Assembly: GCA_964407825.1 (NCBI GenBank)
Contig: CAYOXD010000004.1
Location: 2,784-66,783 of the forward strand
Source: an uncultured Desulfobacterales bacterium
GTDB lineage: Bacteria; Desulfobacterota; Desulfobacteria; Desulfobacterales; JAFDDL01
Reading direction: 5' to 3'
DNA: 64,000 nucleotides
In this document: in pieces, positions 20,954 to 45,393 of the stretch
Numbering within the stretch: position 1 is the stretch's first letter
Layout of the letters: each line of letters opens with the position of its first letter
The notes under the pieces: generated by a model
The model's database searches: none
What the model saw: only the letters and a program-made list of their open reading frames with translations
What the model was told of the DNA's origin: nothing
Made by a program: the position numbers and the translations under genes

Positions 20954-22428
20954 TGTCTTCCCTGAGTGAACAACAACAGCATGCCCTGAAATCCATCCCT
21001 GGGGTCGACCGTCTGCTGGAGCTGGCCAGGAGGAAAATTCCGCCCGCCAGCCTCGTCCCCCGGCGCATCCTGGTCCAGGCCATACGGGAGACCCTGGAGG
21101 GGGCCAGATCGCTCATCCTGAGCAATTTCACGTCAGAGGCGGAGCCGGAAGCGCTTCCGGATTTGGACGAAACGATCCTGCTCGGCCTGGTGCTGAAGCG
21201 GGTGAAACAGGCCCTTGCGCCCAACCTCCGTCGGGTGATCAACGCCACTGGTGTTGTGGTCCACACCAACCTGGGCCGCTCGCCCCTTGCCAGGGCGGCC
21301 CTGGACCACATGAACACAATCGCCAGCGGCTATTCCAACCTGGAATTCGACCTGGACCGGGGCACCCGCGGCTCACGATACAGTGCAGTGGAAACGCTCC
21401 TTTGCGAATTGAGCGGTGCACCCGCGGCCATGGTGGTGAACAACAACGCGGCGGCGGTTCTCCTTTGCCTCAATACCCTTGCCCGGGGCCGGCAGGTGGT
21501 GGTCTCCAGGGGCGAGTTGGTGGAGATCGGCGGCGCCTTTCGGGTGCCGGACGTCATGGCCAAGAGCGGCGCGATCCTCAAGGAGGTGGGCACCACCAAC
21601 AGGACTCACCTCAGGGACTATGAGGCGGCCATCGGACCGGACACGGGACTCCTTCTGAAGGTGCATACCAGCAATTTCAGCGTGGTGGGCTTTACGGCCG
21701 CCGTGACGCTCAAGGACCTGGCCGACCTCGGCAAAGCCCGCCGCATTCCGGTGATGGAGGACCTCGGCAGTGGCAGCTTCATCGACTTTTCCAGATACGG
21801 GCTCCCCGGCAGGGAGCCGACTGCCGGCGAATCGGTAGCCGCCGGCGCGGACCTGGTCACCTTCAGCGGCGACAAACTGCTGGGCGGCCCCCAGGCCGGC
21901 ATCATCCTGGGAAAGGCCTTCCTCATCGAGGCAATCCGGCAAAACTCCCTCACCCGCGCCCTTCGGATCGACAAGTTGACCCTGACCGCCCTGGAAGCCA
22001 CCCTGCGTCTCTACCGGGATGAGCGCATGGCAATCGCTGAAATTCCAACCCTCCGGATGTTGACCCAGCCCTTGGGGCAAGTGGAGGCCCGGGCCCATTC
22101 TTTGGCCGGAGCCCTGAACGCTCTGGAGGATTCCCGGCTCACGGTTGACCTGCTGAACGGCGCCTCCAAGGCAGGCGGAGGAGCCCTTCCGCTGATGGAG
22201 CTGCCTACCGTCTGTGTCGGTGTCCGGGTGAAGGGACTGCCGGTCAAGGCCCTGGAGGAGGCGATGCGCCGGCACAGGCCACCGATCATTGGACGAATCG
22301 AAGCAGACACGTTTCTGATGGACCCACGGACTCTCCAGGAGCAGGACATCCCTCTGGTGGAGCAGGCCGTTCAAACCCTTCTGAGTTCCCTTGGACAGGA
22401 AATGGACCATGACCCCCAAAACACCTGA
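20953..22428 (+). CDS. selA: L-seryl-tRNA(Sec) selenium transferase
   Basis: RVINATGVVVHTNLGRSPL...FSGDKLLGGPQAG (PLP lysine context). Confidence 0.9.
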   Translation: MSSLSEQQQHALKSIPGVDRLLELARRKIPPASLVPRRILVQAIRETLEGARSLILSNFTSEAEPEALPDLDETILLGLVLKRVKQALAPNLRRVINATGVVVHTNLGRSPLARAALDHMNTIASGYSNLEFDLDRGTRGSRYSAVETLLCELSGAPAAMVVNNNAAAVLLCLNTLARGRQVVVSRGELVEIGGAFRVPDVMAKSGAILKEVGTTNRTHLRDYEAAIGPDTGLLLKVHTSNFSVVGFTAAVTLKDLADLGKARRIPVMEDLGSGSFIDFSRYGLPGREPTAGESVAAGADLVTFSGDKLLGGPQAGIILGKAFLIEAIRQNSLTRALRIDKLTLTALEATLRLYRDERMAIAEIPTLRMLTQPLGQVEARAHSLAGALNALEDSRLTVDLLNGASKAGGGALPLMELPTVCVGVRVKGLPVKALEEAMRRHRPPIIGRIEADTFLMDPRTLQEQDIPLVEQAVQTLLSSLGQEMDHDPQNT

Positions 22429-25123: not shown

Positions 25124-26654
25124 AGTCTATCTCGTGGGTGCGGGTCCCGGCGACCCGGGACTCATTACGGTCAAGGGCCGTCAGTGCATCGAAAAGGCCG
25201 ATGTGGTGATCTACGATTATCTGGCCGCCCCCTTTCTTCTGACATACGCTCCTGAGACGGCGGAGCGGATCTACGTAGGGAAAAAGGGCGGGGACCACAC
25301 CCTCTCCCAGGAGGGAATCAACGAGCTGATCATGCAGAAGGCCGCCGCAGGCGCCACGGTCACCCGGCTCAAGGGGGGCGACCCCACCATCTTCGGCAGG
25401 GGAGGCGAGGAGGCTCAGGTGCTGGCGGAAAGGGGCATCCCCTTTGAAATCGTGCCAGGCATCACCTCCGCCATCGCCGCGGCCGCCTACGCCGGCATTC
25501 CCCTCACCCACCGGGATTACACTTCGACCCTGGCCTTTGTAACAGGGCACGAAAACCCGGAAAAGGATACCTCCAGCATCGACTGGGCCGCCCTGGCCAG
25601 GGGCATCGGCACCCTCGTGTTCTTCATGGGCGTCAAGAACCTGCCCCAGATCACCCGGCGCCTCATGGAAAACGGCAAACCGGCCGATACGCCGGTGGCC
25701 CTGGTGCGCTGGGGGACCACCGCCCGGCAGAGAACGGTCACCGGCACCCTGGAGACCATCGTGGAGGCTGTTGCGCAGGCGAAGCTCTCGGCGCCGGCCA
25801 TCACTATCGTAGGGGATGTGGTGGGACTGCGAGGCAGCCTGGCATGGTTCGAAAACCGGCCACTCTTCGGAAAGACCATCGTGGTGACGCGCTCCAGGGA
25901 GCAGGCCAGCGATCTGGTCCAGCGCCTCACCGATCTGGGCGCCGAGTGCCTGGAGTGTCCGACCATCAAGATCGCGCCCCCCGAGGACGCGGCTCCCCTG
26001 GAGGCCGCCCTGGACCGCCTTGCCGAGTATGACTGGCTGGTGTTCACAAGCGTGAACGGCGTCAAACGCTTCTTCGAGCGTTTATTTGAAAGCGGCAGGG
26101 ATGCCCGGGCCCTGGGATCACTCCGCACGGCGGCCATCGGACCGGCCACGGCCCAGTGCCTTCTGGCCCACGGTATCCGAACCGATATCCTTCCGGCCAG
26201 CTACCGTGCGGAATCGGTCATCGAGGCCTTCTCCGAACGGGACATGAGGGGGAAGCGGATCCTTCTTCCCAGGGCACTGGAGGCAAGGCCCATCCTACCC
26301 GTGGAGCTGCGCCGAATGGGCGCCCGGGTGGATGAGGTGGCGGTCTACCGCACCCTTCAGGACCGGCGGAACGCCGCCGATCTTCTGGACCGCCTGAAAG
26401 CGGGTACCATAGATCTCATCACCTTCACCAGCTCCTCCACGGCCCGAAATTTCAAGGCCATGATCCCCAAGGACGAGTTTGCCGGTCTTGTCTCCGGGAC
26501 GACCATCGCGGCCATCGGCCCCATCACCGCCGAGACCGCCGAAACGTTGGGGATGCCCGCTCGGATCGTTGCACCGGCCTATACCATCGACGGGCTCTGT
26601 GATGCGATTCTGGCGTATTATGCGGACAGGAGCAGGGATGATGGGCCCCACTGA
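25113..26654 (+). CDS. Uroporphyrinogen-III C-methyltransferase / uroporphyrinogen-III synthase fusion
   Basis: VYLVGAGPGDPGLITVKG...RLKGGDP (SUMT), followed by a HemD-like half (TIVVTRSREQASDL...FTSSST). Confidence 0.9.
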   Translation: MLGKVYLVGAGPGDPGLITVKGRQCIEKADVVIYDYLAAPFLLTYAPETAERIYVGKKGGDHTLSQEGINELIMQKAAAGATVTRLKGGDPTIFGRGGEEAQVLAERGIPFEIVPGITSAIAAAAYAGIPLTHRDYTSTLAFVTGHENPEKDTSSIDWAALARGIGTLVFFMGVKNLPQITRRLMENGKPADTPVALVRWGTTARQRTVTGTLETIVEAVAQAKLSAPAITIVGDVVGLRGSLAWFENRPLFGKTIVVTRSREQASDLVQRLTDLGAECLECPTIKIAPPEDAAPLEAALDRLAEYDWLVFTSVNGVKRFFERLFESGRDARALGSLRTAAIGPATAQCLLAHGIRTDILPASYRAESVIEAFSERDMRGKRILLPRALEARPILPVELRRMGARVDEVAVYRTLQDRRNAADLLDRLKAGTIDLITFTSSSTARNFKAMIPKDEFAGLVSGTTIAAIGPITAETAETLGMPARIVAPAYTIDGLCDAILAYYADRSRDDGPH

Positions 26655-27654
26655 ACAGCATCCATCCGGCTCGAAACTGATCGACAAGTATGATCGATGC
26701 CTGAACTATATGCGCATCTCCATTACGGATCAGTGCAACCTCAAGTGCATCTACTGCGACCCCTTCGCCCGAACCCCCAAGCTGACCCATGACGATATCC
26801 TGCGCTATGAGGAAATCCTGCGCCTGGTGCGGATCGGGGCGACCCTCGGCCTCTCCAAGGTACGGGTCACCGGCGGAGAACCCCTGGCCCGCAAGGGCGT
26901 TTACCATTTTCTGGATCAGCTGACCACTATTGAGCCGATCAGGGACGTCTCCCTGACCACCAACGCCGTCCTTCTGAAGGACAACCTGGAGAAAATAAGA
27001 TCTGCCGGGATCAAACGGATCAACATCAGTCTCGACAGCCTGAAGCGCGAAAAAGTCCAGCGAATCACCGGCCGGGATGCGTTTTCAGAGGTCTGGGAAG
27101 CCATTATGGGGGCCCATGACATGGGGTTCGCCCCCATCAAGATCAACATGGTGCCCCTTCGGGGCATCAACGACGACGAGCTGGTGGACTTCGCCGAACT
27201 GTCTCTGAAGTACCCCTTTCATATCCGCTTTATCGAATACATGCCCATCGGCAAAACGATCGTGGGCAGCGGCCAGCAGATCCTGGCCGATGAAATCAAG
27301 ACCAAAATCGAATCCATCGGCCCGTTGCTGCCCGTTCAGGACGGCGCCCTCCAGGGGCCAGCGGTCCGGTACCGCTACCAGGGCGCTCCCGGCGAAATTG
27401 GACTGATCCGGCCTATCAGCCAGCATTTTTGCGGTTCCTGCAACCGACTGCGCCTCACTGCGAACGGTCAGCTCAGGGTGTGCCTCCTGTCCGACCTGCA
27501 GGTGGATCTCAAGACACCCATGCGCCAGGGACTGCTGGACGAGGACCTGAAGGCGCTCTTCCTCAAGGCCGTGGGTCTCAAGCCCATGAGCCACCGGCTC
27601 AATGACAGCTGCTCCGGCCAGCCGGCGGGGCAAATGTCGGCTATTGGGGGGTAA
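26638..27654 (+). CDS. moaA: GTP 3',8-cyclase (Moco biosynthesis)
   Basis: ISITDQCNLKCIYC radical-SAM cluster, GGEPL, and C-terminal CGSCNRLRLTANGQLRVCL. Confidence 0.9.
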   Translation: MMGPTEQHPSGSKLIDKYDRCLNYMRISITDQCNLKCIYCDPFARTPKLTHDDILRYEEILRLVRIGATLGLSKVRVTGGEPLARKGVYHFLDQLTTIEPIRDVSLTTNAVLLKDNLEKIRSAGIKRINISLDSLKREKVQRITGRDAFSEVWEAIMGAHDMGFAPIKINMVPLRGINDDELVDFAELSLKYPFHIRFIEYMPIGKTIVGSGQQILADEIKTKIESIGPLLPVQDGALQGPAVRYRYQGAPGEIGLIRPISQHFCGSCNRLRLTANGQLRVCLLSDLQVDLKTPMRQGLLDEDLKALFLKAVGLKPMSHRLNDSCSGQPAGQMSAIGG

Positions 27655-32763: not shown

Positions 32764-33789
32764 ATGAAAAGAAGTGTTCCCGTTCGACAGGCCGTGGGGA
32801 TGGTGCTGGGCCATGATGTCACCCGGATCGTACCCGGCAAATTCAAAGGAAGGGCCTTTAAGAGGGGCCATGTCATCACCGAGGAGGATATTCCCCTGCT
32901 CCTGGATATCGGAAAGGAGCATATTTACGTCCTTGATCTCGACGACGGATTTGTTCACGAAGACGAGGCGGCCAATCGGATCGCCCGGGCGGCGCTCGGG
33001 CCCGGCCTGAAACTGACGGATGTTTCAGAGGGGAAAGTCAATATCGTGGCAGCCCATGCCGGCCTTCTCAAGGTCGATGCGGAAGCCCTGGCCAGGGTGA
33101 ACGCCCTTGGAGAAATCGTTTTTGCCACCCTTCACGCCAACCAGCCGGTCAAGGCGGATCAGCCGGTTGCCGGAACCCGGATTATTCCCCTGGTCATCGA
33201 GAGGGAAAAGATCGAGGCTGCGGAGGTCCTCTGCCGGGCCGACAACCCCGTAGTCCAGGTCAAACCCCTGGCAGCCCGCAATGTGGGGCTGATCACCACA
33301 GGCAGCGAGGTCTACCACGGTCGCATCGAAGACAAGTTCGGACCGGTGGTGGCCCGCAAATTCGAGGATCTGGGGAGCCGGATCCTGCGTCAGATCTTCG
33401 TCCTCGACGACGTGGACATGACAGTGGCAGCCATTCATACCCTGCTCGATGAGGGGGCGGAAATGATTGTCATGACCGGCGGCATGTCCGTGGACCCGGA
33501 CGATCTGACGCCTGCCTCCATTCGTGCGGCCGGGGCCAGAGTCGTCGGTTACGGCGCCCCCGTCTTTCCGGGGGCCATGTTCATGCTGGCCTATATCGAC
33601 GACATTCCTGTAATGGGGCTGCCCGGATGTGTCATGTACCACAAGGCCACCATCTTCGAGCTGGTGGTGCCCCGCATTCTCGCGGGGGAAACCGTTCCCT
33701 ACGAAGAGATCACGAGGCTTGGCTACGGCGGATTCTGCGCAGGCTGCAAGGAATGCCGCTACCCGTTGTGTGGTTTCGGAAAAGGATAA
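32764..33789 (+). CDS. Molybdopterin-binding (MogA/MoeA-fold) protein with a C-terminal Cys cluster
   Basis: VGLITTGSEV...IVMTGGMSVDPDDLTP, typical of the MoCF-biosynthesis domain. C-terminal CAGCKECRYPLC. Confidence 0.75.
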   Translation: MKRSVPVRQAVGMVLGHDVTRIVPGKFKGRAFKRGHVITEEDIPLLLDIGKEHIYVLDLDDGFVHEDEAANRIARAALGPGLKLTDVSEGKVNIVAAHAGLLKVDAEALARVNALGEIVFATLHANQPVKADQPVAGTRIIPLVIEREKIEAAEVLCRADNPVVQVKPLAARNVGLITTGSEVYHGRIEDKFGPVVARKFEDLGSRILRQIFVLDDVDMTVAAIHTLLDEGAEMIVMTGGMSVDPDDLTPASIRAAGARVVGYGAPVFPGAMFMLAYIDDIPVMGLPGCVMYHKATIFELVVPRILAGETVPYEEITRLGYGGFCAGCKECRYPLCGFGKG

Positions 33790-33852
33790 CTGCTCGTTAC
33801 CTGTTTATCCGACAACTCAAAATCGAAGGAATAATGAAAGGAGAAAACCGGC

Positions 33853-36567
33853 ATGATCAAAAAGAATCTCACCATCAATGGCGTTGCCCGGATGGTCGTT
33901 GCGCCTCCGGATGCGATGCTGGCCAACGTAATCCGTGAGCAGCTGGGACTGACGGGAACGAAGATCGGGTGCGGCCAGGCGCAGTGCGGTGCCTGCAACG
34001 TGATCCTGAACAACAAACTGATCAAATCCTGCATCACCAAGATGTCCCGGGTTCCCAACGAGTCCACCGTCATCACCGTTGAAGGCGTCGGCAATCCCGA
34101 CAACCTCCATCCGCTTCAGCTGGCCTGGGCGGTGCACGGCGGCGCCCAGTGCGGCTTCTGTACCCCGGGGTTTATCGTTTCGTCAAAGGCGCTTCTGGAT
34201 TCCAATGCCAATCCCACCCGCGAAGACGTGCGCGAGTGGTTCCAAAAGAACAAAAACGCCTGCCGCTGCACCGGTTACAAACAGCTCGTGGACGCGGTCA
34301 TGGACGCCGCCAAGGTTCTGCGCGGCGAAATGAAGGCAGATGAGCTCTTCTTCAAGATTCCTGTGGACGGTGAAATCTGGGGCGGCAACATGCCCAGACC
34401 CACCGCTATCGCCAAGGTCACCGGCACCCTGGATTACGGCGCCGACCTGGGCGCCAAGATGCCTGCCGGCACCCTGCAGCTGGCCCTGGTTCAGGCCGAA
34501 GTGTCCCACGCCAATATCAAAGGCATCGACACCTCCGAGGCGGAAAAAATGCCCGGCGTGGAAAAGATCGTCACCTGCAAGGACATCAAGGGCAAGAACC
34601 GCATCACGGGTCTCATCACCTTCCCCACCAATAAGGGCGACGGTTGGGATCGGCCCATCCTCTGCGATGAGAAGGTCTTTCAGTACGGCGACGCCATCGC
34701 CATCGTCTGCGCGGACACCATCGAGAACGCCAAGGCAGCCGCAGCCAAGGTCAAGGTCGATATGGAAGTGCTGCCCGCCTATATGGGCGCGCCGGCCGCC
34801 ATGGCCGATGACGCCATGGAAATCCATCCGGGTACGCCAAACGTCTATTTCACCCAGAACATCAAAAAGGGTGCGGACACCAAACCCATTTTTGACAGTG
34901 CAGCCGTCGTGGTCGAAGATGATTTCTTCGTCGGCCGTCAGCCCCACATGCCCATTGAGCCGGATGTCGGATTGGCATACATGGACGATGGCAAGCTGAT
35001 CATCCAGTCCAAGTCCATCGCCCTGAACCTGCATCGCATGATGATCGCGCCGGGCCTCGGCATTGAGCTGGACGACCTGGTCATGATACAGAACCCCACG
35101 GGCGGCACCTTCGGCTACAAGTTCTCCCCCACCATGGAAGCCCTGGTGGGCGCGGCCTGCATGGCCACCGGCAAGCCGGTCTACCTCTGCTATGATTACC
35201 ATCAGCAGCAGACCTACACCGGGAAGCGCTCCCCCTTCCATGTCCATATGCGCCTCGCCGCTGACAAGGATGGAAAGCTCCTGGGAATGGAGACGGACTT
35301 CAATGTGGACCATGGCCCCTACTCCGAGTTCGGCGACCTACTGACCACCCGCGGCTTCCAGTTCATGGGCGCCGGCTACGACATCAAGAACATCCGCGGT
35401 ATCGGCCGCACAGTCTGCACCAACCACTCCTGGGGATCGGCCTTCCGCGCCTACGGCTCCCCCCAGAGTTTCTACCCCACTGAAGTTCTGATGGACCGCA
35501 TCGCCGCCAAGCTGGGCATGGATCCGCTGGAACTTCGGTACAAGAACGTCTACCGCGATGGGTCCACCACCCCCACGGGCCAGACGCCGGAAGTTCTGTC
35601 CCTGCCGGAAATTCTAGAGACCCTGCGGCCCAAGTACAAGGCCGCCATGGATAAGGCCAAGGCCAACTCCACGGCCACCGTCAAACGCGGTGTGGGCGTC
35701 TCCGTCGGCATCTACGGCTGCGGTTTGGACGGCCCCGACACCTCCGGCGCCAAGATCGAACTGAACCCGGACAACTCGGTCACCGTCTACAACACCTGGG
35801 AAGATCACGGACAGGGCGCGGATATCGGCACTCTGACCACCGCCCACAAGGCCCTCCGTCCCTTGGGACTGAGTCCGGATCAGATTCACCTGAACCTGAA
35901 CGACACCAGCCTGGCCCCGGATTCGGGTCCCTCGGGCGGAAGCCGTCAGCAGGTGGTCACGGGGCGTGCCATCAAGGCCACCGCCGAAATCATGATCGAA
36001 GCCCGCAAGAAGGCGGACGGGACCTTCATGACCTACGACGAGATGAAAGAGGCTGGAAAGCCCCTGGCTTACGAAGGCAAATGGAGCGCGCCTGCCACCC
36101 TGCTGGATGAAAACTCCCAGGGCAGCCCCTTCAGCGTGTACATGTATGGTGTGTTCATGGCGGAAGTGGCCGTTGACACCACCACCGGTGTCACCACGGT
36201 CGAGAAAATTTCCCAGGTGGCCGACATCGGAAAGGTTTGCAACATGCTGTGCACCGATGGCCAGATCTACGGCGGCATGGCCCAAGGTATCGGCCTGGCC
36301 CTCACCGAGGATTTCGAGGACATCAAGAAGCACTCCACCCTCGTGGGCGCCGGCTTCCCATACTGCAAGCAGATTCCCGATGACATGGAAATCATCTACG
36401 TCCAGACCCCGCGGCCCGAAGGTCCCTTTGGCGCCGCCGGTGTTGGTGAGCTGCCCCTGACCAGCCCCCATGCGGCGATCATGAACGCCATGACCAACGC
36501 ATGCGGCGTCTGCGTCACGAAGCTGCCGGCCCTGCCCGAGAAGGTCCTTGCCGCACTGAAAGGTTGA
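33853..36567 (+). CDS. mop: Mop-type aldehyde oxidoreductase (xanthine-oxidase family, 2x[2Fe-2S] plus Mo-MCD, no FAD domain)
   Basis: 904 aa. N-terminal LTINGV...GCGQAQCGACNVILN...CIT...TVEGVG...QCGFCTPGFI...CRCTGY, followed by large Mo-pterin domains. Size and architecture match the D. gigas MOP. Confidence 0.9.
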   Translation: MIKKNLTINGVARMVVAPPDAMLANVIREQLGLTGTKIGCGQAQCGACNVILNNKLIKSCITKMSRVPNESTVITVEGVGNPDNLHPLQLAWAVHGGAQCGFCTPGFIVSSKALLDSNANPTREDVREWFQKNKNACRCTGYKQLVDAVMDAAKVLRGEMKADELFFKIPVDGEIWGGNMPRPTAIAKVTGTLDYGADLGAKMPAGTLQLALVQAEVSHANIKGIDTSEAEKMPGVEKIVTCKDIKGKNRITGLITFPTNKGDGWDRPILCDEKVFQYGDAIAIVCADTIENAKAAAAKVKVDMEVLPAYMGAPAAMADDAMEIHPGTPNVYFTQNIKKGADTKPIFDSAAVVVEDDFFVGRQPHMPIEPDVGLAYMDDGKLIIQSKSIALNLHRMMIAPGLGIELDDLVMIQNPTGGTFGYKFSPTMEALVGAACMATGKPVYLCYDYHQQQTYTGKRSPFHVHMRLAADKDGKLLGMETDFNVDHGPYSEFGDLLTTRGFQFMGAGYDIKNIRGIGRTVCTNHSWGSAFRAYGSPQSFYPTEVLMDRIAAKLGMDPLELRYKNVYRDGSTTPTGQTPEVLSLPEILETLRPKYKAAMDKAKANSTATVKRGVGVSVGIYGCGLDGPDTSGAKIELNPDNSVTVYNTWEDHGQGADIGTLTTAHKALRPLGLSPDQIHLNLNDTSLAPDSGPSGGSRQQVVTGRAIKATAEIMIEARKKADGTFMTYDEMKEAGKPLAYEGKWSAPATLLDENSQGSPFSVYMYGVFMAEVAVDTTTGVTTVEKISQVADIGKVCNMLCTDGQIYGGMAQGIGLALTEDFEDIKKHSTLVGAGFPYCKQIPDDMEIIYVQTPRPEGPFGAAGVGELPLTSPHAAIMNAMTNACGVCVTKLPALPEKVLAALKG

Positions 36568-36617
36568 TCTTGGGTTGAAGTTGAAGCTGTAAATTGCTGA
36601 ATGTTGAATATGCTCGA

Positions 36618-36654
36618 GGGGCGGGTCCTGATGGTTGTTAACAGGACCCGCCCC
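36618..36654 (+). other. Perfect 13-bp GC-rich stem-loop after mop, with no U-tract
   Basis: GGGGCGGGTCCTG-atggttgttaa-CAGGACCCGCCCC. Confidence 0.6.
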
Positions 36655-36737
36655 CATTCTCTGCTGAACAGGGCCGGTAATCGTTGTCGTAATCGCAGTC
36701 GACATGAAAAACGGTATCATCATCAAGCCAGGATGTT

Positions 36738-39038
36738 ATGGATCAAAAAGAACTCAAGGCGATAGAACACAAATGCATCCAGGAGGAACCGCCCGAATGC
36801 GTAGCCGCCTGCCCTATTCACGTGAATGCTCGGAGCCTCATGGGTTCCGTTGCTGCGGGTAAATGGGACAACGCTTTTAAGATATTAGAAAAAACAATGC
36901 CGATCCCGGCCATTCTCGGACGCGTCTGCGATGCGCCTTGCCGGGCGCGGTGCAAGCGCGGCGAGGTTGAAGATCCCATCGAAATCGGCGCCCTTGAGCG
37001 CGCCTGCCTGGAATTCGGCACCCCCCCCCGGCTTCTGCCGCCCATTCCCCATAAGGATCAACGGGTGGCCGTGGTGGGCACCGGTGTGAGCAGTTTGACC
37101 GTGGCATGGGATCTTTCCAAGAAGGGCTATGCCGTCACCCTTTACGAGCCGTCGTCGGACTTTGCCGATAAGCTGCTCCAGGCCTGGCCTGACCGGCTTA
37201 CCCCGGAGCATCTGGACAATACCTTGACGGTGCTGGAAAAGCGCCGCGTTGCGGTGGAGCGGCAGGCTGCCGTGGAAGACCCGGGCTTCCCAGACCATTT
37301 GGACGGGTTCGACGCCGTCTACCTCGGACTGGATGCCGTATCCGGGAAACAGTGGCCTCTTGACCAGATTGATGAGGCCCTTCAGACCACCTCCCAGGAG
37401 GGGGTGTTTGCCGGCGGGAACTCGCCTCGAAGCATCCCGTCGGTCATCTGGCGGGCCGCGGAAGGCCGTTTTGCCGCCATCTCCATGGACCGCTTTCTTC
37501 AGGGCGTTTCCCTCAGCGCGGGACGAAAAGCCGAGGGATCCTACCCCACCCGACTCTTTACCAGCATAGAGGGCATTTCCCCCAAAGCCGCGGTCCAGGC
37601 CACCGATCCCACGGGGAGCTACAGCGCCTCCGAGGCCGTTTCAGAGGCCGAGCGCTGCCTTCAGTGCGAGTGCCTCGAATGCGTGAAGGTGTGCCCGTAC
37701 CTGGAGCATTTTCGCGGTTATCCGAAAAAATATGCCAGGGAGATTTACAACAACGAGGCCATTGTGATGGGGGTACGTCAGGCCAACACCCTCATCAATT
37801 CGTGCAGTCTCTGCGGGCTCTGTGAACAGGTCTGTCCCGAGGACTTCGCCATGCAGGATGTCTGTCTGGAGGCACGCCGCTCCATGGTCCAGCGAGCCAA
37901 GATGCCCGATCGCGCCCACGAATTCGCCCTTTTGGATATGGCTTTCTCCCAGAGCGATAAATTTGCCATGATACGCCATGAGCCCGGGTCCGATAAGAGC
38001 CGCTATGCCTTTTTCCCGGGCTGCCAGCTGTGCGCCTCCTCCCCCAGCCAGGTGATGGACACTTACGCTCATCTCAGAAGCTGTATCTCCGACGGTATCG
38101 GTTTGATGCTCGGCTGTTGCACCGCCCCCGCATACTGGGCCGGCCGGGAGGATCTCTTCCAGGAGGGCCTCGACACCTTCAAGGGCAACTGGGAAAGGCT
38201 TGGGAAACCGGAGGTGGTTCTGGCCTGTTCCACCTGCCTGCGCACCTTCCGGGACCACCTGAAGGAGGTGCCGGTGGTGTCCCTGTGGCAGGTACTTGAG
38301 GAAAAGGGACTGCCTATTCCTGAAAAGTCTCCAACTCAGAATACGGTAGTGGCCATCCACGACCCTTGCACCACCCGGCATGAACCTGAAATCCAGGAGG
38401 TCGTGCGGCGCCTGGCCGGCCGGCTCGGGGTCACCGTCGCTGAACTGCCCCTGTCAAAGGACCTCACCGAGTGCTGCGGATTCGGCGGGCTCATGAGAAA
38501 CGCGAATCCTGCCCTCGCAAAGGAAGTGATCCGCAGGCGGTCCCGGCAAAGCGAAGCAGACTACCTGGCTTACTGCGCCATGTGCCGGGACAATCTGGCC
38601 GGCGCCGGAAAGCGTGCCCTTCACTTGCTGGACCTGGTGTTTCCATCGTCGGCGGATAGCGACCCGGCGGACCGGGAACGGCCCGGCTGGTCCCTGCGGC
38701 TGGACAACCGGGAGCACCTGAATCTACGGATGCGAACGGAAATTTGGGGGGAAACCATGCCGAACAACAGCGAAGCCCATCGCGACATCGAGCTTGTCAT
38801 GACCCGCGAGGTGGAGGTTCGATTGGAAAACCGGCGTATCCTTAAGCAAGACGTCCAAAAGGTCCTCCATCATGCGGCCCAAACCGCAAAAACCTTCGTG
38901 AACGAGGAAACCGGGCATTATCTTGCCTCGTTCAAGCCCAGCCGGGTTACCTTTTGGGTGGAATATTCGCCGGAAGGGGAAGGCAAATATGTCATTCACA
39001 ACGCCTATGCGCACCGGATGGAGGCTCGACCCGCATGA
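36738..39038 (+). CDS. Multidomain flavo-FeS oxidoreductase: GltD-like N-terminus, 2x[4Fe-4S] ferredoxin, two CCG (HdrB/D, GlpC-like) domains and a C-terminal extension
   Basis: CVAACPIHV...GRVCDAPCRARC...RVAVVGTGVSSLTVAWDL (GltD-like); CLQCECLECVKVCP and CSLCGLCEQVCP; FFPGCQL...CCTAP and IHDPCTTRH...TECCGFGG (CCG motifs). Confidence 0.8.
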   Translation: MDQKELKAIEHKCIQEEPPECVAACPIHVNARSLMGSVAAGKWDNAFKILEKTMPIPAILGRVCDAPCRARCKRGEVEDPIEIGALERACLEFGTPPRLLPPIPHKDQRVAVVGTGVSSLTVAWDLSKKGYAVTLYEPSSDFADKLLQAWPDRLTPEHLDNTLTVLEKRRVAVERQAAVEDPGFPDHLDGFDAVYLGLDAVSGKQWPLDQIDEALQTTSQEGVFAGGNSPRSIPSVIWRAAEGRFAAISMDRFLQGVSLSAGRKAEGSYPTRLFTSIEGISPKAAVQATDPTGSYSASEAVSEAERCLQCECLECVKVCPYLEHFRGYPKKYAREIYNNEAIVMGVRQANTLINSCSLCGLCEQVCPEDFAMQDVCLEARRSMVQRAKMPDRAHEFALLDMAFSQSDKFAMIRHEPGSDKSRYAFFPGCQLCASSPSQVMDTYAHLRSCISDGIGLMLGCCTAPAYWAGREDLFQEGLDTFKGNWERLGKPEVVLACSTCLRTFRDHLKEVPVVSLWQVLEEKGLPIPEKSPTQNTVVAIHDPCTTRHEPEIQEVVRRLAGRLGVTVAELPLSKDLTECCGFGGLMRNANPALAKEVIRRRSRQSEADYLAYCAMCRDNLAGAGKRALHLLDLVFPSSADSDPADRERPGWSLRLDNREHLNLRMRTEIWGETMPNNSEAHRDIELVMTREVEVRLENRRILKQDVQKVLHHAAQTAKTFVNEETGHYLASFKPSRVTFWVEYSPEGEGKYVIHNAYAHRMEARPA

Positions 39039-39247
39039 CTGAACAGCACATAGACCCCGAGGATCTGAAATGGCGTTGCTCCAAGTGTGGGGAAAAACTC
39101 GTCGCCGCACCGGCCGTCGTGGAATATATGGGAAACCGCTTCACCAACGATCTTCCCCAATGCCCAAAATGCGGATGGGTTCTCGTAACCGAGAAGATCG
39201 CCAAAGGCAGGATGGGGGAGGTGGAGCGCATTCTTGAAGACAAGTAG
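39035..39247 (+). CDS. 70-aa four-cysteine zinc-ribbon protein (DVU1557-like redox protein, from memory)
   Basis: MTEQHIDPEDLKWRCSKCGEKL...LPQCPKCGWVL. The ATGA overlap with the upstream stop indicates translational coupling. Confidence 0.7.
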   Translation: MTEQHIDPEDLKWRCSKCGEKLVAAPAVVEYMGNRFTNDLPQCPKCGWVLVTEKIAKGRMGEVERILEDK

Positions 39248-39956
39248 CCTGGCGGCAGCATGGCCTGTGAATCTCTACGAATCCAAACGGCTCCAGGGGG
39301 TGACAGGCCCCGCCATCAGGCCCGGGGACCTGGCCCTGACGCAGCGCGCCCTGACGCTCCTGCCGCTGGCCGAAAAGGCCACGGTGCTCGATATCGGGTG
39401 CGGACTGGGCGCTACCGTGAGCTACCTCCGGGAAAAGGGCCTGAGCGCCATCGGGCTTGACCTGTCTACGGTGCTGCTGAGGGATGCCCGAGCCGCCGGA
39501 ACGCAGCCCCCCATGGCCCGGGCCGACGCCCACAGGCTGCCGATGAGGAATGAAAGCGTATCCGCCGTTTTTATGGAATGCACCCTCTCTCTCATGGCCC
39601 GCCCCGCCAGGGTTCTTGAGGAGTGCAGCCGGGTGCTTCGAAGTGAGGGGCACCTGGTGGTAACAGACATGTACTGGCGGGGAGAGGCCCCCCGGCTGAA
39701 GGCCGAACCCTCTGCCGGTTGCTGCATATTCGGAGCCGTTGAGCGCCAGGTGATGGAAAGACGGGCGAAGGATGCTGGATTTACCGTTACCCTTTGGGAG
39801 GACCACACGGCCCAGCTCAAGTACCTGGCCGCCAAGCTTGTATTCGAATACGGATCCTTAAAGGATTTCTGGGCCGCCTTTGGCATCTCGGAAGAGGAGA
39901 ATTGGTGCTGCGTCAAACCTGGGTATTGCCTGATGGTGGCTCGCAAGGACCTTTAA
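39234..39956 (+). CDS. Class I SAM-dependent methyltransferase
   Basis: VLDIGCGLGATVSYL...GLDLS motif I and post-I. TTG start with GGAG 7 nt upstream (alternative GTG at 39267). Confidence 0.8.
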   Translation: MKTSSLAAAWPVNLYESKRLQGVTGPAIRPGDLALTQRALTLLPLAEKATVLDIGCGLGATVSYLREKGLSAIGLDLSTVLLRDARAAGTQPPMARADAHRLPMRNESVSAVFMECTLSLMARPARVLEECSRVLRSEGHLVVTDMYWRGEAPRLKAEPSAGCCIFGAVERQVMERRAKDAGFTVTLWEDHTAQLKYLAAKLVFEYGSLKDFWAAFGISEEENWCCVKPGYCLMVARKDL

Positions 39957-40014
39957 CTGTGGGGTCAGCTATTAGCCATTAGCTAACAGCTGAAAACAAC
40001 GGATGTGTTGGTAG

Positions 40015-40449
40015 ATGGATGATACGAGCATAGAGATGATGCGGCTTGCCGCAAAGGGCTACTCCTGCAGCCAGATCCTTATCAGGATGGCCCTGGATGC
40101 CAGGGGAGAAGAAAATCCCGATCTGGTCCGGGCCATGGGGGGGCTGGCCTACGGCTGCGGCAGCGGGTGCGGCACCTGCGGCGTGCTGACCGGTGGAAGC
40201 TGCTTGATCGCGCTCTATTCGGCAAAGGGCAGCGATGAGGAAACGGCCTCCGAGCGATTCATGTTAATGCTAAATGAACTGACGGACTGGTTTTCACAGA
40301 CCTATGGCAACCAGTATGGCGGCATCACCTGTGACGTCATCGTGGGGGATGAGGGCCCCCGGAGTGCCATGGCCCGCTGCGGCCAGATGGTGGCGGAAAC
40401 CTATAACAAGACCATCGAGATCCTGATGGCAAACGATTTCGAGATATAG
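40015..40449 (+). CDS. C_GCAxxG_C_C family protein
   Basis: YSCSQ...GTCGVLTGG...ITCDVI...ARCGQMV reproduces the C-GCAxxG-C-C cysteine pattern. Confidence 0.8.
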   Translation: MDDTSIEMMRLAAKGYSCSQILIRMALDARGEENPDLVRAMGGLAYGCGSGCGTCGVLTGGSCLIALYSAKGSDEETASERFMLMLNELTDWFSQTYGNQYGGITCDVIVGDEGPRSAMARCGQMVAETYNKTIEILMANDFEI

Positions 40450-40460
40450 CTGCGAAGACA

Positions 40461-41831
40461 GTGGAGCCAGATGTTACACAGAGCCTCTGCCCGGTGTGCC
40501 TCGAGCGCATAGCGGCGCGGCGGATTCAGCGGGGTGATGCCACATACCTCCTTAAGACATGCCCCGCTCACGGGACCTACGAAACCTTGATATGGAAGGG
40601 TGCGCCCCCTTTTCATGATTGGAAGCGTCCCAAGAAACCGACCGGCCCCGGCGTCTCGAAAGAGACGCCGGGGAGAGGCTGCCCCTTTGATTGCGGGCTA
40701 TGCCCGGACCACCGGCAACGGTCCTGCACGGTGGTCATGGAAGTCACCCAGCGCTGCAACCTTCGCTGTCCGGTCTGCTATGCGGACTCGGGGGATACGG
40801 ACGGCGGGGATGAGGCCATCGAGAGTCTAATTACCCGAATCCGTCAGATACGCCAGAAGGCGGGCGACTGCCATATTCAGCTCTCCGGGGGAGAGCCCAC
40901 CGTCAGGGAGGACCTGCCGGAACTCGTCTCCGCCAGCCGGGAGGCCGGGTTCTCCTTTGTTCAAATCAATACCAACGGCATCCGTCTGGCGCGGAAATCC
41001 GCCTATGCCAAGACACTGAAGGCGGCAGGTCTCTCCTCGGTCTTTCTCCAGTTCGACGGCACCGACGATGGGGTCCATCGGCGCCTGCGGGGTCAGCCCC
41101 TGATGAAGGAAAAACTGGCAGCCATCGCCGCCTGTGAAGGGGCCGGCATCGGTGTTGTGCTCGTGTCCACCCTGGTGCCGGGGGTGAATACGAACCAGGT
41201 GGGAAAAATCCTGGAAACCGGCCTCTCCCATTCCCCCACGGTGCGGGGGGTGCATTTCCAACCCATTAGCTACTTCGGACGCTTTGGGGGCGAGCCCACC
41301 GAAGAGATGCGCCTGAGCCTGCCCCAACTGATGCGGCAGTTGGAGAGGCAAAGCGGCGGCAAGGTCAAGGTATCCCATTTCAAACCGCCGGGATGCGAAA
41401 ACCCCCGGTGCTCCTTCCATGCGAACTACGTGCTGACGGCGGCGTCCGCCCTGTTGCCCCTCTCAAGGGGAGGTTGCTGCGGGGAGCCCGAAACGGCGGA
41501 AACGGGCGCAAAGCGCGCCATTTCCTATGTCGCCAGGCAGTGGGCGGCCCCCCGGGTCACGGCGCCCGCGGCCACCGAGCCTCTCGGCAGCAGCTCCCCG
41601 GACGGCGCATGGCGGCTGGAGAGCTTCATCGATCGGGCAGCCACCCACACCTTTACCATCTCCGCCATGGCGTTCATGGACGCCTGGAACATCGATCTCG
41701 AAAGACTCAGGGATTGCTGCATCCATGTGGCATCGCCCCAGGGGAACCTGATTCCCTTTTGCGCCTATAACCTGACGGCAACAAACGGTCGGGGCCTCTA
41801 CAGAACCAAAACACCGCCTCCCGGAGCATAA
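40461..41831 (+). CDS. Radical SAM enzyme with an N-terminal zinc ribbon and a large C-terminal domain
   Basis: LCPVCLERI...CPAHG zinc ribbon; VTQRCNLRCPVCYA (CxxxCxxC); LSGGEPT. GTG start 11 nt after the upstream stop. Confidence 0.85.
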   Translation: MEPDVTQSLCPVCLERIAARRIQRGDATYLLKTCPAHGTYETLIWKGAPPFHDWKRPKKPTGPGVSKETPGRGCPFDCGLCPDHRQRSCTVVMEVTQRCNLRCPVCYADSGDTDGGDEAIESLITRIRQIRQKAGDCHIQLSGGEPTVREDLPELVSASREAGFSFVQINTNGIRLARKSAYAKTLKAAGLSSVFLQFDGTDDGVHRRLRGQPLMKEKLAAIAACEGAGIGVVLVSTLVPGVNTNQVGKILETGLSHSPTVRGVHFQPISYFGRFGGEPTEEMRLSLPQLMRQLERQSGGKVKVSHFKPPGCENPRCSFHANYVLTAASALLPLSRGGCCGEPETAETGAKRAISYVARQWAAPRVTAPAATEPLGSSSPDGAWRLESFIDRAATHTFTISAMAFMDAWNIDLERLRDCCIHVASPQGNLIPFCAYNLTATNGRGLYRTKTPPPGA

Positions 41832-41840
41832 GGAGATGCC

Positions 41841-43193
41841 GTGACCAGAACGCCCCTGGACAGCTGGATACGCGGAAAAATCGGCCTCCAGCCCGATTCT
41901 CCGTTGACCCGCTGGGCCCTGGATGCGTTCCAGCTCGAAAAGCTGCGGCAAATTCTGACCTATGTGCGGGAGAAAAGCCCCTTCTACCGGCGCCTCATGG
42001 CGGGTCTGCCGGAGCACGCCTTGACCTGCCTTTCCGATATGGCAATGCTTCCTTTTACCGCACCCGAGGACATTCGATCCGCCCCCCTGCAGTTCCTGTG
42101 TCTGTCCCAGGACGAGGTCGCACGGGTGGTAACCCTCCAAACCTCCGGCACCACCCGGGCACCCAAACGGATCTTTTTCACTGAGGAGGACCTGGAGCTC
42201 ACCATCGACTTCTACCACCACGGCATGTCCACCATGGTCTCGCCCGGTGACCGGGTGTTGATTCTCATGCCCGGGGAAACGCCCTTCAGCGTGGGAGACC
42301 TCCTGGTCCAGGGGCTGGCCCGAATGGGGGTCGAAGGCATCGTGCACGGGCCGGTTCATGACACGGAAGCGGCGCTGCGCACCATTCTGGACCGCCGGAT
42401 CGACTGCCTGGTGGGCATACCCATCCAGGTCTTTCATATGGCGAAGGACCTGCTGGCCGGAAAAATCTTCCCGGGCAGGCTGAAGAGTATCCTCCTCAGT
42501 GCCGATCACGTATCGGACGCGCTGGTGGAAGCCCTCACCCAAGCCTTTCGCTGCCCGGTTTACCAGCATTACGGGATGACGGAGACCGGCCTTGCCGGCG
42601 GGGTCGAGTGTGCGGCCTTGGCGGGCTATCACCCCAGGGAGGCGGATCTTTATTTCGAAATCATTGACCCGGATACCGCTCTGCCGGTAAAGGAAGGAGA
42701 GACGGGCGAGCTGGTCGTCACCACCCTGACCCAGCGGGCCATGCCGCTCATCCGCTACCGGACCGGGGATCTGGGCCGATTTATACCCGGCCCCTGCCCC
42801 TGCGGTACCATTTTGAAGCGCCTGGGCCGGGTTCAGGCCCGCAGAAAGGGCATCTTCCCTATAACGCCGGCCTTTTCCCTGTCCGTTCCCCAACTGGACA
42901 GCGCTCTTCTGGCCGTGCCGGCGGTGGTGAATTATGAGGCACGCCTTGACGAGAACCAGGGAAAGCCCCGACTGACCCTGTCGGCCTATGCGATCGATGG
43001 GGCCGGGGAACCCGTCCGCAGGCAGATCCTCAAAGCCCTGCGCCACATTCCGGGCCTGCGAGAAACGGCGGAGGCGGGCCATCTGGCCCTTGCGGTAAAC
43101 CTGGCGGCCGGGAAACCGCCGGTTTCCACCGGCCCCCAAAAACGCCGGATCATCGACCAGCGCAGCCAGACTCCCTACACCCTGAAACTTTAA
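41841..43193 (+). CDS. PaaK / coenzyme-F390-synthetase-like adenylate-forming enzyme
   Basis: LQTSGTTRAPKRIFFT (P-loop-like AMP motif), YGMTE, YRTGD. GTG start with a GGAG RBS. Confidence 0.8.
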   Translation: MTRTPLDSWIRGKIGLQPDSPLTRWALDAFQLEKLRQILTYVREKSPFYRRLMAGLPEHALTCLSDMAMLPFTAPEDIRSAPLQFLCLSQDEVARVVTLQTSGTTRAPKRIFFTEEDLELTIDFYHHGMSTMVSPGDRVLILMPGETPFSVGDLLVQGLARMGVEGIVHGPVHDTEAALRTILDRRIDCLVGIPIQVFHMAKDLLAGKIFPGRLKSILLSADHVSDALVEALTQAFRCPVYQHYGMTETGLAGGVECAALAGYHPREADLYFEIIDPDTALPVKEGETGELVVTTLTQRAMPLIRYRTGDLGRFIPGPCPCGTILKRLGRVQARRKGIFPITPAFSLSVPQLDSALLAVPAVVNYEARLDENQGKPRLTLSAYAIDGAGEPVRRQILKALRHIPGLRETAEAGHLALAVNLAAGKPPVSTGPQKRRIIDQRSQTPYTLKL

Positions 43194-43213
43194 CCAATGC
43201 AACAGGAAATCCC

Positions 43214-44266
43214 ATGAGAGAACTGACGTCCCATATATGTGACTGTATCGATAAAAGCGAAAGCATCGTTCTGGCCTCGATCATCAGCCGCTCCGGTTCG
43301 GCCCCCAGGACCGCCGGCACCCGCATGCTGATCGACCGGGAGGGCAAGGGAATCGGCACCATCGGCGGCGGGCTGCTGGAGGGGCGCAGCATGAATAAGG
43401 CCGTCGAGCTGTTCGAAACCGGGCACTCCTACCTGCTCCCCTTTGACCTGACCCACATGGACGTGGCTGCCATGGACATGATCTGCGGCGGAGAGGTGGA
43501 GGTGCTTCTGGACCTGGTGCTGCCCACCCCTGAAAACCGCAAGGTCTTCACGCGGTATCGGGCCGCCTTGGAAAACGGAGAAAAGGCGCTGCTCTTAACC
43601 GCCGCACGGCAAGGCGGTGGGCAGGGCGTTCAAACGGATCACTGCGTGATCACCAGGGACGGCGAGGTCACCGGCTCGGTTCACCTGTCCCCCGAGACCC
43701 TGGACGAACTGCTGTCCGGCAGCCAGGCCTTCTCCATCCAGCAGGTGATCACGCAACCGGAGGTCCTGCTCATCACCGCCCCCACCTCGCAGCCCAAGAC
43801 CGTATATCTTTTCGGTGGCGGACACGTGTCGCTTCCCACCGGATATTTTGCCTCCAGGGTGGGTTTCGACGTGGTGATTTTGGATGATCGGGAGGAATTC
43901 GCCAATTCCCGACGCTTCCCCTTTGCCAGGGAAGTCAGGCTCCTTCCCGACTTCCACAGCCCCTTTTCCGACCTGTCGCCAGTGGATGAAAACGCCTTCG
44001 TGGTTATCGTCACCCGGGGTCACCTTCATGACAAGACGGTTCTGGCCCAGGCCTTGAGGACCCGCGCCGCCTATATCGGCATGATCGGCAGCCGCACGAA
44101 GCGCAACAAGATCTATAGGGCCCTGTTGGATCAAGGATTTACCCAGGAGGATCTGGGCCGGGTGCACGCGCCCATCGGGATCGAGATCGAGGCCGAGACA
44201 CCTGAGGAAATCGCCATTTCCATCGTGGCGGAGCTGATCCATGAGCGAGCCAAGTTGACCCCATGA
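43214..44266 (+). CDS. XdhC/CoxI-family Moco insertion chaperone
   Basis: VLASIISRSGSAPRTAGTRMLI...IGTIGGG and a C-terminal Rossmann-like VYLFGGGHVS. Confidence 0.85.
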   Translation: MRELTSHICDCIDKSESIVLASIISRSGSAPRTAGTRMLIDREGKGIGTIGGGLLEGRSMNKAVELFETGHSYLLPFDLTHMDVAAMDMICGGEVEVLLDLVLPTPENRKVFTRYRAALENGEKALLLTAARQGGGQGVQTDHCVITRDGEVTGSVHLSPETLDELLSGSQAFSIQQVITQPEVLLITAPTSQPKTVYLFGGGHVSLPTGYFASRVGFDVVILDDREEFANSRRFPFAREVRLLPDFHSPFSDLSPVDENAFVVIVTRGHLHDKTVLAQALRTRAAYIGMIGSRTKRNKIYRALLDQGFTQEDLGRVHAPIGIEIEAETPEEIAISIVAELIHERAKLTP

Positions 44267-45393
44267 GCCTGGAAAACCTGTCCGCCATCATTCTGGCCGC
44301 CGGATTCAGTTCCCGGATGGGGAGGTTCAAGCCGCTGCTGCCCCTGGGAGACACCACCGTGGTGGAACGGACCATCGCGATCTTTCTGCAAAACAGGATT
44401 CCGGATATCCGCGTGGTGGTGGGGCATGACAGCGACAGACTGATTCCTGTTCTGCGCCCATACCCGGTCTCCATCGTCATGAATCCGGATTATCCGGAGG
44501 GCATGTTCTCGTCCGTCCGCGCGGGGGTCGGTTCCTTGGGACCGGCCGCGGCCGCATTTTTCCTCCTTCCGGTGGATGTGCCCCTGGTCCGGCCCTTTAC
44601 GGTCAAGAGGCTCCTGGACCAATACCGGTCAACCCCCGGTCGTATCCTCATCCCCTCCTTCAAGGGAAAATCCGGGCATCCGCCCCTGATTCCCGCCTCA
44701 TTAGCCGATACCATCGTCACCGCCGAGGGGGGCCATGGGTTGCGGGGCGTCCTGTCCTCCCACCGTCACCTGATCCACCGGGTGGAGGTGCCCGATGCGC
44801 ATATGCGCTTTGATCTGGACACCCCCAAGGACTATGCTGGGTTCCTCGCCCGCCTGGCCCGCTACGATATCCCCACACTCCGTGAAATCGAAATCATCAT
44901 GGAACATATCCATCCGGTATCCGAGAAAATCCGCCTGCATTGCCGGATGGTTTCGCAGATCGCCGACAGGATTTCCCGGGCCCTTGGCCGCAAGGGCATC
45001 CCCCTCAATCGCCGGCGCCTGCGGGCCGCCGCGCTGCTTCATGATCTTGCCAGGGGAGAAAAACATCATGCCCTTGTGGCGGCACGCTGGCTTGAAGAGA
45101 TGGGATTTTCTTCCCTGTGCGGGATGGTTGCCTCTCATATGGATCTTCAACCCGATGAGACAAACGGCATTACCGAAGCTGAAATCCTCTTCATTTCGGA
45201 CAAACTGGTCCTGGAAGATCGACCGGTATCCCTGGCCCAGAGGTACGAAGCGGCCCTGCGCCGTTATGCAGGCTCCCCAGGATCCGCCCAAAACATCGCC
45301 TTGCGCCTGGACAAGGCAGTCAAAATCAAGACCAGAATAGAGGGGGCCCTCGGCACCCCCCTGGAAGATTTCCTGGCCACCCAGCCCCCCTGA
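44263..45393 (+). CDS. MocA/MobA-like nucleotidyltransferase fused to a C-terminal HD domain
   Basis: LSAIILAAGFSSRMG.FKPLLPLG...LLPVDVP (MobA-like NTP transferase). C-terminal AALLHDLARGE...ASHMD (HD). ATGA overlap with xdhC. Confidence 0.8.
   Translation: MSLENLSAIILAAGFSSRMGRFKPLLPLGDTTVVERTIAIFLQNRIPDIRVVVGHDSDRLIPVLRPYPVSIVMNPDYPEGMFSSVRAGVGSLGPAAAAFFLLPVDVPLVRPFTVKRLLDQYRSTPGRILIPSFKGKSGHPPLIPASLADTIVTAEGGHGLRGVLSSHRHLIHRVEVPDAHMRFDLDTPKDYAGFLARLARYDIPTLREIEIIMEHIHPVSEKIRLHCRMVSQIADRISRALGRKGIPLNRRRLRAAALLHDLARGEKHHALVAARWLEEMGFSSLCGMVASHMDLQPDETNGITEAEILFISDKLVLEDRPVSLAQRYEAALRRYAGSPGSAQNIALRLDKAVKIKTRIEGALGTPLEDFLATQPP

Follow-up and report, generated by a model that had tools for sequence, protein, structure and literature searches.

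A Cys-type member of the TrsS family

The window analysed here, a stretch of 64,000 nucleotides from an uncultured Desulfobacterales bacterium (contig CAYOXD010000004.1), carries at positions 40461 to 41831 of its forward strand a gene, trsS, for a radical S-adenosylmethionine (SAM) protein of 456 amino acids (aa) that starts with GTG. An earlier note on this DNA had recognised a radical SAM enzyme there, and the open reading frame (ORF) and both motifs that it quoted, LCPVCLERIAARRIQRGDATYLLKTCPAHGTYETLIW (residues 9-45) and VTQRCNLRCPVCYA (residues 95-108), are present in the translation, together with the long C-terminal domain that it described. The identification as a TrsS protein of the Cys type draws on the ORF listing, on the NCBIfam model NF045646, on a match to the solved structure 7TOL and on AlphaFold and Foldseek comparisons. 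The product is a Cys-type member of the curated family NF045646, "radical SAM (seleno)protein TrsS", which it matches at 653.9 bits against a cutoff of 490 (E 9e-197) and along its full length (protein residues 6-448, model positions 3-441 of 441). At a domain threshold of E ≤ 0.01, Pfam finds Radical_SAM (PF04055, 6.4e-23, residues 93-252), Zn_ribbon_HMPTM (PF23545, 2.5e-18, residues 4-46) and a third family, Fer4_12; whether a cobalamin-binding domain (PF02310) is also present had been left open in the earlier note, and Pfam detects none.

Other NCBIfam models fall well behind. The runner-up is Tes (NF045702), with 331.7 bits against a cutoff of 450 and a best stretch covering model positions 2-322 of 486, and all models besides TrsS and Tes remain below 85 bits. 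MoaA was rejected as the identity of the protein (76-83 bits against cutoffs of 231-325), and another gene of the window, at 26479-27654, encodes a real MoaA (336 bits). SPASM/twitch maturases such as PqqE, StsB, SkfB and the mycofactocin enzyme were likewise rejected, as they reach 42-68 bits against cutoffs of 265-650 and align over the radical SAM core only, so the best matches do not lie in an unrelated subfamily of this kind. TIGR04317, the tungsten cofactor oxidoreductase radical SAM maturase, resembles TrsS in being an uncharacterised family that, to judge from its name, NCBI curators have tied to tungsten-cofactor oxidoreductases, and offers a precedent at the level of annotation; it is nevertheless a different family, which the window protein matches at 47 bits against a cutoff of 380, again over the radical SAM core only.

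Public data contain a protein 100% identical to this product and thousands of homologues; the window TrsS is at most 59% identical to every homologue database cluster but one. The identical public protein (P0001, 445 aa) was called from Val12, read as Met, and thereby loses Cys10 of the iron site. Because Thr6, Ser8, Cys10, Pro11 and Cys13 are invariant across the TrsS family, the true start is the GTG at 40461. That short members of the homologue clusters are forms truncated at a selenocysteine (Sec) codon was considered and rejected; they break near residue 280 or are cut at the N-terminus, not at residue 312, and are frameshifts or fragments. A table entry in PMC13188914 credits the name TrsS to Haft & Tolstoy 2025 (mSystems 10:e01417-24).

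Predicted metal sites and kinship with the archaeal tetraether synthase

The earlier note had likened the layout of the protein to that of MJ0619-type enzymes and of the tetraether-lipid Tes enzymes, and this likeness holds: the ribbon carries the HMPTM name in Pfam, Tes is the second-best NCBIfam model, and the Methanocaldococcus jannaschii enzyme is the top match by sequence and by fold, with its ligands kept. These were, however, treated as two precedents, whereas MJ0619 and Tes are one enzyme, GDGT-MAS, which couples lipid tails (Lloyd et al. 2022, PMC9433317). Its structure 7TOL is the best solved match by sequence (E 5.6e-79, TrsS residues 6-310 and 395-438). An AlphaFold (AF2) model of TrsS built from 28 homologues, with a predicted local distance difference test score (pLDDT) of 77.7 and a predicted template modelling (TM) score, pTM, of 0.83, retrieves 7TOL and 7TOM with Foldseek at E 6e-36 and TM 0.70-0.72, followed by MoaA, the GTP 3',8-cyclase of molybdenum cofactor (Moco) synthesis, at 1.7e-11.

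Alignments of 28 TrsS and 25 archaeal Tes sequences, the latter including MJ0619, were compared as profiles with hhalign (probability 100, 35% identity, 435 aligned columns). Sequence identity is 51-92% within TrsS and 47-84% within Tes, but 30-40% between them, a pattern that marks TrsS as a family separate from Tes. TrsS is a bacterial family and a sister to archaeal Tes/GDGT-MAS, the tetraether synthase (MJ0619; 7TOL, 7TOM; NF045702), with which it shares a four-domain architecture and, to judge from the aligned residues, four metallocofactors.

By this alignment, the residue matching each metal ligand of GDGT-MAS is present and invariant in TrsS. The predicted rubredoxin-like iron site lies in the ribbon (residues 4-46, 40470 to 40598, forward strand), where Cys10, Cys13, Cys34 and His37 are invariant in the 28 TrsS sequences and reproduce the C9X2C12X20C33X2H36 spacing of GDGT-MAS. 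It is followed by a motif for an N-terminal auxiliary [4Fe-4S] cluster (40680 to 40727, forward strand), Cys74-X3-Cys78-X2-Cys81 with His84 and Cys89, all invariant, in which Cys74, Cys78, Cys81 and His84 correspond to C73, C77, C80 and a His of GDGT-MAS. The radical SAM core (residues 93-252, 40737 to 41216, forward strand) holds the invariant Cys99-X3-Cys103-X2-Cys106 (40755-40778, forward strand), equivalent to the CX3CX2C of GDGT-MAS, and an invariant GGEP SAM-binding motif (G143-P146). The putative C-terminal [4Fe-4S] cluster would be bound by Cys317, in the motif PPG-Cys312-E-N-x-x-Cys317 (41394 to 41411, forward strand), and by Met403, Cys419 and Cys434, in a region (residues 395-438, 41643 to 41774, forward strand) that also contains Cys420 and aligns to 7TOL residues 451-494; the Tes counterparts of Cys317, Cys419, Cys434 and Met403 are Cys338, Cys455, Cys470 and Met439. 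In GDGT-MAS this cluster holds the substrate radical as a C-S intermediate, and its Met ligand is labile (PMC9433317).

Beside the predicted ligands of the C-terminal cluster, TrsS has two invariant cysteines of its own, Cys312 and Cys420, and the counterpart of Cys420 is variable in Tes. Both Cys312 and Cys317 are invariant in the 28 TrsS members, and residue 312 stands five positions ahead of the predicted ligand. In a Desulfobacterium metagenome-assembled genome (MAG; locus L014), an in-frame TGA aligns to Cys312 with conserved flanks on both sides (FRPPG*ENALCSFHGN), and residue 312 is therefore the selenocysteine site of the family. The alternation of Cys and Sec there points to a chemically active residue. 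The pair Cys338-Cys339 of TrsS was tried as the Sec site and rejected, as it is missing in several members and the TGA lies at 312. When the stretch downstream of the TGA in L014 was folded by a simple procedure, no clear selenocysteine insertion sequence (SECIS) hairpin emerged. The window also encodes SelA, the L-seryl-tRNA(Sec) selenium transferase (20953-22428, forward strand, 592 bits), 18 kb upstream of trsS, and the host appears to have selenocysteine machinery although its own TrsS has Cys at the Sec position.

TrsS and Tes differ around the substrate. [quoted passage not shown] The segment corresponding to Y309-C338 of Tes, just before the cluster ligand, is 28 residues long in every Tes and 9 in every TrsS, 19 fewer. 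Bulk hydropathy between the cluster ligands gave no separation (-0.14 for TrsS, 0.02 for Tes) and says nothing on a lipid or non-lipid substrate. TrsS differs further in being bacterial and in belonging to a molybdoenzyme operon, not to a lipid setting.

The molybdoenzyme operon and its conservation

The molybdopterin context proposed in the earlier note is borne out by flanking genes that match models for AOR, XdhC, MocA-HD and MoCF_biosynth and that are strongly conserved. In the window, trsS belongs to a cluster of nine genes (32764-45393), all on the forward strand and bounded by a DinG-type helicase gene upstream and rmlACD downstream; each product exceeds its own NCBIfam cutoff except the first, which is identified by Pfam only. 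That first gene encodes a MoCF_biosynth (MogA/MoeA-type) domain protein (32764 to 33789, forward strand; PF00994, 9.8e-23). It is followed by a Mop-type molybdopterin aldehyde oxidoreductase, AOR (33853 to 36567, forward strand; 904 aa; NF045668, 1647 bits), with two [2Fe-2S] clusters and molybdenum-molybdopterin cytosine dinucleotide (Mo-MCD), which aligns end to end with the Desulfovibrio gigas AOR (1SIJ/1VLB, 1427 bits). Next comes a fusion of a GltD-like FAD/NAD(P) oxidoreductase with a ferredoxin dicluster and two HdrD-like CCG domains (36738 to 39038, forward strand; NF045663, 1036 bits; Fer4_20, Fer4_17, CCG twice), in which all cluster cysteines are conserved. The C-terminal part of this reductase (window ~38500-39038) is Pfam DUF7479; a free-standing 160-aa protein of this family occurs at another trsS locus (L019, 8267-8749), where the rest of the reductase is absent.

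Two genes directly precede trsS, those for a DVU_1556-family class I SAM methyltransferase (39234 to 39956, forward strand; NF045667, 233 bits) and a DVU_1555-family C-GCAxxG-C-C protein (40015 to 40449, forward strand; NF045669, 176 bits) with four invariant cysteines (Cys18, Cys55, Cys106 and Cys122). For the latter, no relative was found among solved structures, and a single-sequence AlphaFold model reached a pLDDT of 52. Downstream of trsS lie a DVU_1553-family PaaK-like adenylate-forming ligase (41841 to 43193, forward strand; NF045666, 472.6 bits), which among solved structures is nearest to phenylacetate-CoA and other aryl-acid ligases, an AOR maturation factor of the XdhC family (43214 to 44266, forward strand; NF045664, 406 bits) and a fusion of a MocA-type Moco cytidylyltransferase with an HD domain, the DVU_1551 family (44263 to 45393, forward strand; NF045665, 417 bits; TIGR03310, 154 bits, residues 7-192). 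The ligase family has an invariant Cys257 and an invariant Cys319-x-Cys321 pair across 69 loci, which may form a metal site or a reactive thiol site. From the C-GCAxxG-C-C gene through trsS, the ligase and XdhC to MocA-HD, the intergenic gaps are 12, 10, 21 and -4 bp.

The neighbours of TrsS each have a dedicated NCBIfam model (NF045663-NF045669) and, because such models match across the cluster, NCBI curators had already modelled both TrsS and its neighbourhood. The family, its Sec/Cys alternation and its genomic setting are thus already catalogued, and the window copy is a canonical Cys-type member.

At least 588 relatives of TrsS emerged from a scan that took one genome per GTDB species; 80 loci were fetched from among them, and neighbours were sought there by tblastn with the window proteins. 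The PaaK-like ligase is co-located with TrsS in 69/80 loci, the C-GCAxxG-C-C protein in 68/80, the methyltransferase in 63/80, the HdrD-like reductase in 60/80, AOR in 52/80, MocA-HD in 41/80 and XdhC in 39/80. The MoCF_biosynth gene is present in 22/80 TrsS loci and in 23/42 AOR loci (the latter are described below). Gene order is mostly as in the window, in Thermodesulfobacteriota, Chloroflexota, Bacillota, Campylobacterota, Acidobacteriota, Nitrospirota, Synergistota and others, and in several phyla XdhC and MocA stand between the methyltransferase/C-GCAxxG-C-C pair and the TrsS/ligase pair. A reciprocal test used 80 metagenome loci with AOR orthologues at 64-77% identity; 42 of these had at least 5.8 kb downstream of AOR, and TrsS is present in 36 of the 42.

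At a few trsS loci that lack a Mop-type AOR, the module adjoins a different pyranopterin enzyme. In L019 (2293-11419), L025 (~12898) and L046 (~8211), the neighbour is not the Mop-type AOR but a tungsten-type aldehyde:ferredoxin oxidoreductase of the AFOR family; the three AFORs are 80-82% identical to one another. MoeA is also encoded in L025 and L046, while L019 has no MoeA match and contains an NAD-type aldehyde dehydrogenase. In L023 (4298-16238), the methyltransferase, C-GCAxxG-C-C, TrsS and ligase genes are flanked by an unusual enzyme that comprises a CoxM-like FAD subunit and a catalytic subunit in which a [2Fe-2S] Fer2 domain is joined to a molybdopterin domain of the dimethyl sulfoxide (DMSO) reductase family; it is followed by MoeA and by one MOSC and one DUF3641 radical SAM protein. 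In L065 the module likewise adjoins a DMSO-reductase-type enzyme.

The relatives in L034, L050, L069 and L078 have none of the AOR-operon neighbours or other pyranopterin enzymes beside them. In L050 (9971-12148), a TrsS-like protein (46% identity) continues into a C-terminal DUF5714 domain, giving 725 aa in total, near CbiM/CbiQ cobalt-transporter genes. DUF5714 has a CGAxxG-like motif, and its hhalign comparison with the C-GCAxxG-C-C family was not significant (E 0.059 over 16 columns). In L078 (4478-15307) and L069 (8343-13623), from Clostridia/Oscillospiraceae MAGs, the orphan TrsS homologues lie beside large ORFs with no Pfam match at E < 1e-5; either the simple ORF prediction is at fault or the neighbourhoods have yet to be characterised.

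Possible role of TrsS and competing explanations

By analogy with GDGT-MAS, TrsS would reduce SAM to a 5'-deoxyadenosyl radical, as Tes does, and this radical would abstract a hydrogen from an unactivated C-H of the substrate. The substrate radical might then be held on the C-terminal cluster or on Cys/Sec312, and a bond of the C-S, C-Se or C-C type would result. TrsS would probably act in concert with the methyltransferase, which co-varies with it, and with the C-GCAxxG-C-C protein encoded next to it. A membrane lipid is an unlikely substrate, given the absence of Tyr459 and of a segment specific to Tes and the lack of conserved lipid genes in the vicinity.

The favoured role, although put at less than even odds, is an accessory one: TrsS would make, finish or reactivate something that pyranopterin aldehyde oxidoreductases need, be it the cofactor, the active site or a dedicated thiol/redox partner, and would not perform a housekeeping step of Moco synthesis. 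In favour of this role, XdhC and MocA are interleaved with the module, and three unrelated families of pyranopterin enzymes are associated with it, two of them with cofactor genes of their own. An accessory system acting on AOR in vivo is plausible, as the D. gigas enzyme loses activity when the dithiolene of its cofactor is oxidised and regains it only with strong reductants (PMC3877041). Together, the identity of TrsS, its operon, the chemistry suggested by its kinship and the accessory role make up the best overall explanation, in which confidence falls somewhat short of even. A more far-reaching reading, an as yet undescribed radical step carried out by TrsS with the methyltransferase, the C-GCAxxG-C-C protein, the ligase and the HdrD-like flavoprotein on the pyranopterin cofactor, its dithiolene or the ligand sphere of the metal, is rather improbable; such a step could install, repair or reductively reactivate an S- or Se-bearing group. 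If true, it would constitute a new branch of Moco or tungsten cofactor (Wco) maturation or repair in anaerobes, common to enzymes of the Mop-type AOR, AFOR and DMSO-reductase types.

Several points weigh against the best overall explanation. The linkage between AOR and TrsS is strong but not obligate: AOR is accompanied by XdhC and MocA alone in L094 and by no module gene in L139 and L148; L087 and L121, the latter a shorter locus, retain the reductase, the C-GCAxxG-C-C protein and the ligase (with XdhC in L087) but have neither TrsS nor the methyltransferase. For native AOR of D. gigas, a species that may itself carry trsS, crystal structures describe an ordinary, unmodified pyranopterin cytidine dinucleotide (PMC3877041). 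Two of the three partner families are aldehyde oxidoreductases, and these, with the NAD-type aldehyde dehydrogenase of L019 and the PaaK-like ligase, fit a small-molecule pathway equally well. The structural model of TrsS has a pLDDT below 50 around Cys312 and across residues 337-381. Finally, the literature searched yielded no functional data on DVU_1551-1559 or on AOR combined with a radical SAM protein, and no experiment on TrsS. The loci L087 and L121, from which both genes are missing, suggest that trsS tends to be acquired or lost along with the methyltransferase gene.

The strongest competing explanation is a small-molecule pathway, in which a carboxylate or aldehyde metabolite is made or broken down by TrsS together with the methyltransferase, the C-GCAxxG-C-C protein and the ligase, AOR or AFOR catalyses the aldehyde/acid step, the HdrD-like flavoprotein is the electron partner, and XdhC and MocA only mature AOR. 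The kinship of the ligase with aryl-acid CoA ligases, the aldehyde oxidoreductases at L019, L025 and L046, and the L019 dehydrogenase, which does not use a pterin, agree with such a pathway, as do the ordinary cofactor of D. gigas AOR and the AOR orthologues that do without the module, as would be expected of an optional pathway. It is nonetheless judged unlikely, although a serious contender: the DMSO-reductase-type partners in L023 and L065 are not among the known aldehyde oxidoreductases, in several phyla XdhC and MocA stand in between module genes, and there is neither a transporter, a regulator or a further catabolic enzyme conserved with the module nor a candidate metabolite.

The earlier note had instead reasoned that a pterin-directed enzyme beside Moco-handling genes implies a modified molybdopterin, which would make TrsS a pterin C-methylase producing methylated molybdopterin for the neighbouring enzyme. 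The position of TrsS among Moco-handling genes, its co-variation with a SAM methyltransferase, the association of the module with three pyranopterin enzyme families and the HMPTM label that the Pfam ribbon still carries would all suit this reading. That label, 7,8-dihydro-6-hydroxymethylpterin dimethyltransferase (class D methylase), is a legacy annotation of MJ0619, the same protein as GDGT-MAS, and should not be taken as a functional precedent for TrsS. The pterin C-methylase activity of MJ0619 was not corroborated by Lloyd et al. 2022, who found the active site of GDGT-MAS to be a narrow hydrophobic tunnel that accommodates lipid and was judged unsuited to pterin (PMC9433317). Because the pterin-methylase assignment of MJ0619 could not be reproduced, the argument for a pterin substrate has no basis. 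TrsS moreover contains no cobalamin-binding or other methyl-carrier domain, native D. gigas AOR has the standard cofactor described above, and TrsS is missing from the 10 kb around certain AOR orthologues; a pterin methylase is thus very improbable.

That TrsS is a bacterial Tes, which would couple the tails of two membrane lipids into membrane-spanning lipids such as precursors of brGDGTs (branched glycerol dialkyl glycerol tetraethers), is the least credible reading and hardly to be entertained: TrsS is the closest bacterial relative of GDGT-MAS and keeps all its metal sites, some databases name family members 'tetraether lipid synthase', and bacterial Tes homologues have been proposed as brGDGT synthases (PMC8941075), but its Tes score lies below the cutoff, Tyr459 is replaced and the Y309-C338 segment shortened, the conserved neighbourhood in at least seven phyla is a molybdoenzyme operon with no lipid gene, and no Tes homologue was found in the screened producers of diabolic or iso-diabolic acid outside Acidobacteria, while 3/14 iso-diabolic-acid-producing acidobacteria have one (PMC13159169).

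The distinction from Tes has consequences for annotation. JGI names on TrsS homologues include 'tetraether lipid synthase' and '7,8-dihydro-6-hydroxymethylpterin dimethyltransferase'; each of these labels was inherited from MJ0619, and neither is right for TrsS. Surveys of "bacterial Tes homologues" for brGDGT producers have used thresholds of E < 1e-50 and identity > 20% (PMC8941075). TrsS would pass these thresholds and, because TrsS of Acidobacteriota, Chloroflexota and Desulfobacterota adjoins a molybdoenzyme and not lipid genes, counts of "bacterial Tes" may be inflated, to judge from the thresholds and not from those data sets themselves.

More broadly, a putative four-metal-centre radical enzyme, built like the only known enzyme that couples lipids by joining two Csp3 centres, is tied, in hundreds of anaerobes, to the operon of the D. 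gigas-type AOR, which ranks among the most thoroughly studied molybdoenzymes. To the existing catalogue, the present analysis adds a Sec site mapped beside a predicted cluster ligand, a ligand-by-ligand comparison with Tes, a corrected start codon, graded variants of the cluster, and alternative partners of the AFOR and DMSO-reductase types. To judge from the DVU_ family names and from DVU_1559, which is its Aor, Desulfovibrio vulgaris Hildenborough carries the cluster, in which trsS would by its position be DVU_1554. This strain is a long-studied laboratory model in which mutants can be made.

Non-coding elements of the window were also surveyed. An Rfam scan of its whole length found only a tRNA-Leu and no Moco riboswitch, and a promoter and terminator scan performed no better than on shuffled sequence. 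Outside the operon, an ORF at 19589-20953 (forward strand) joins a CheD-like chemoreceptor deamidase region (residues 11-137) to an HDIG phosphohydrolase domain (residues 274-377).

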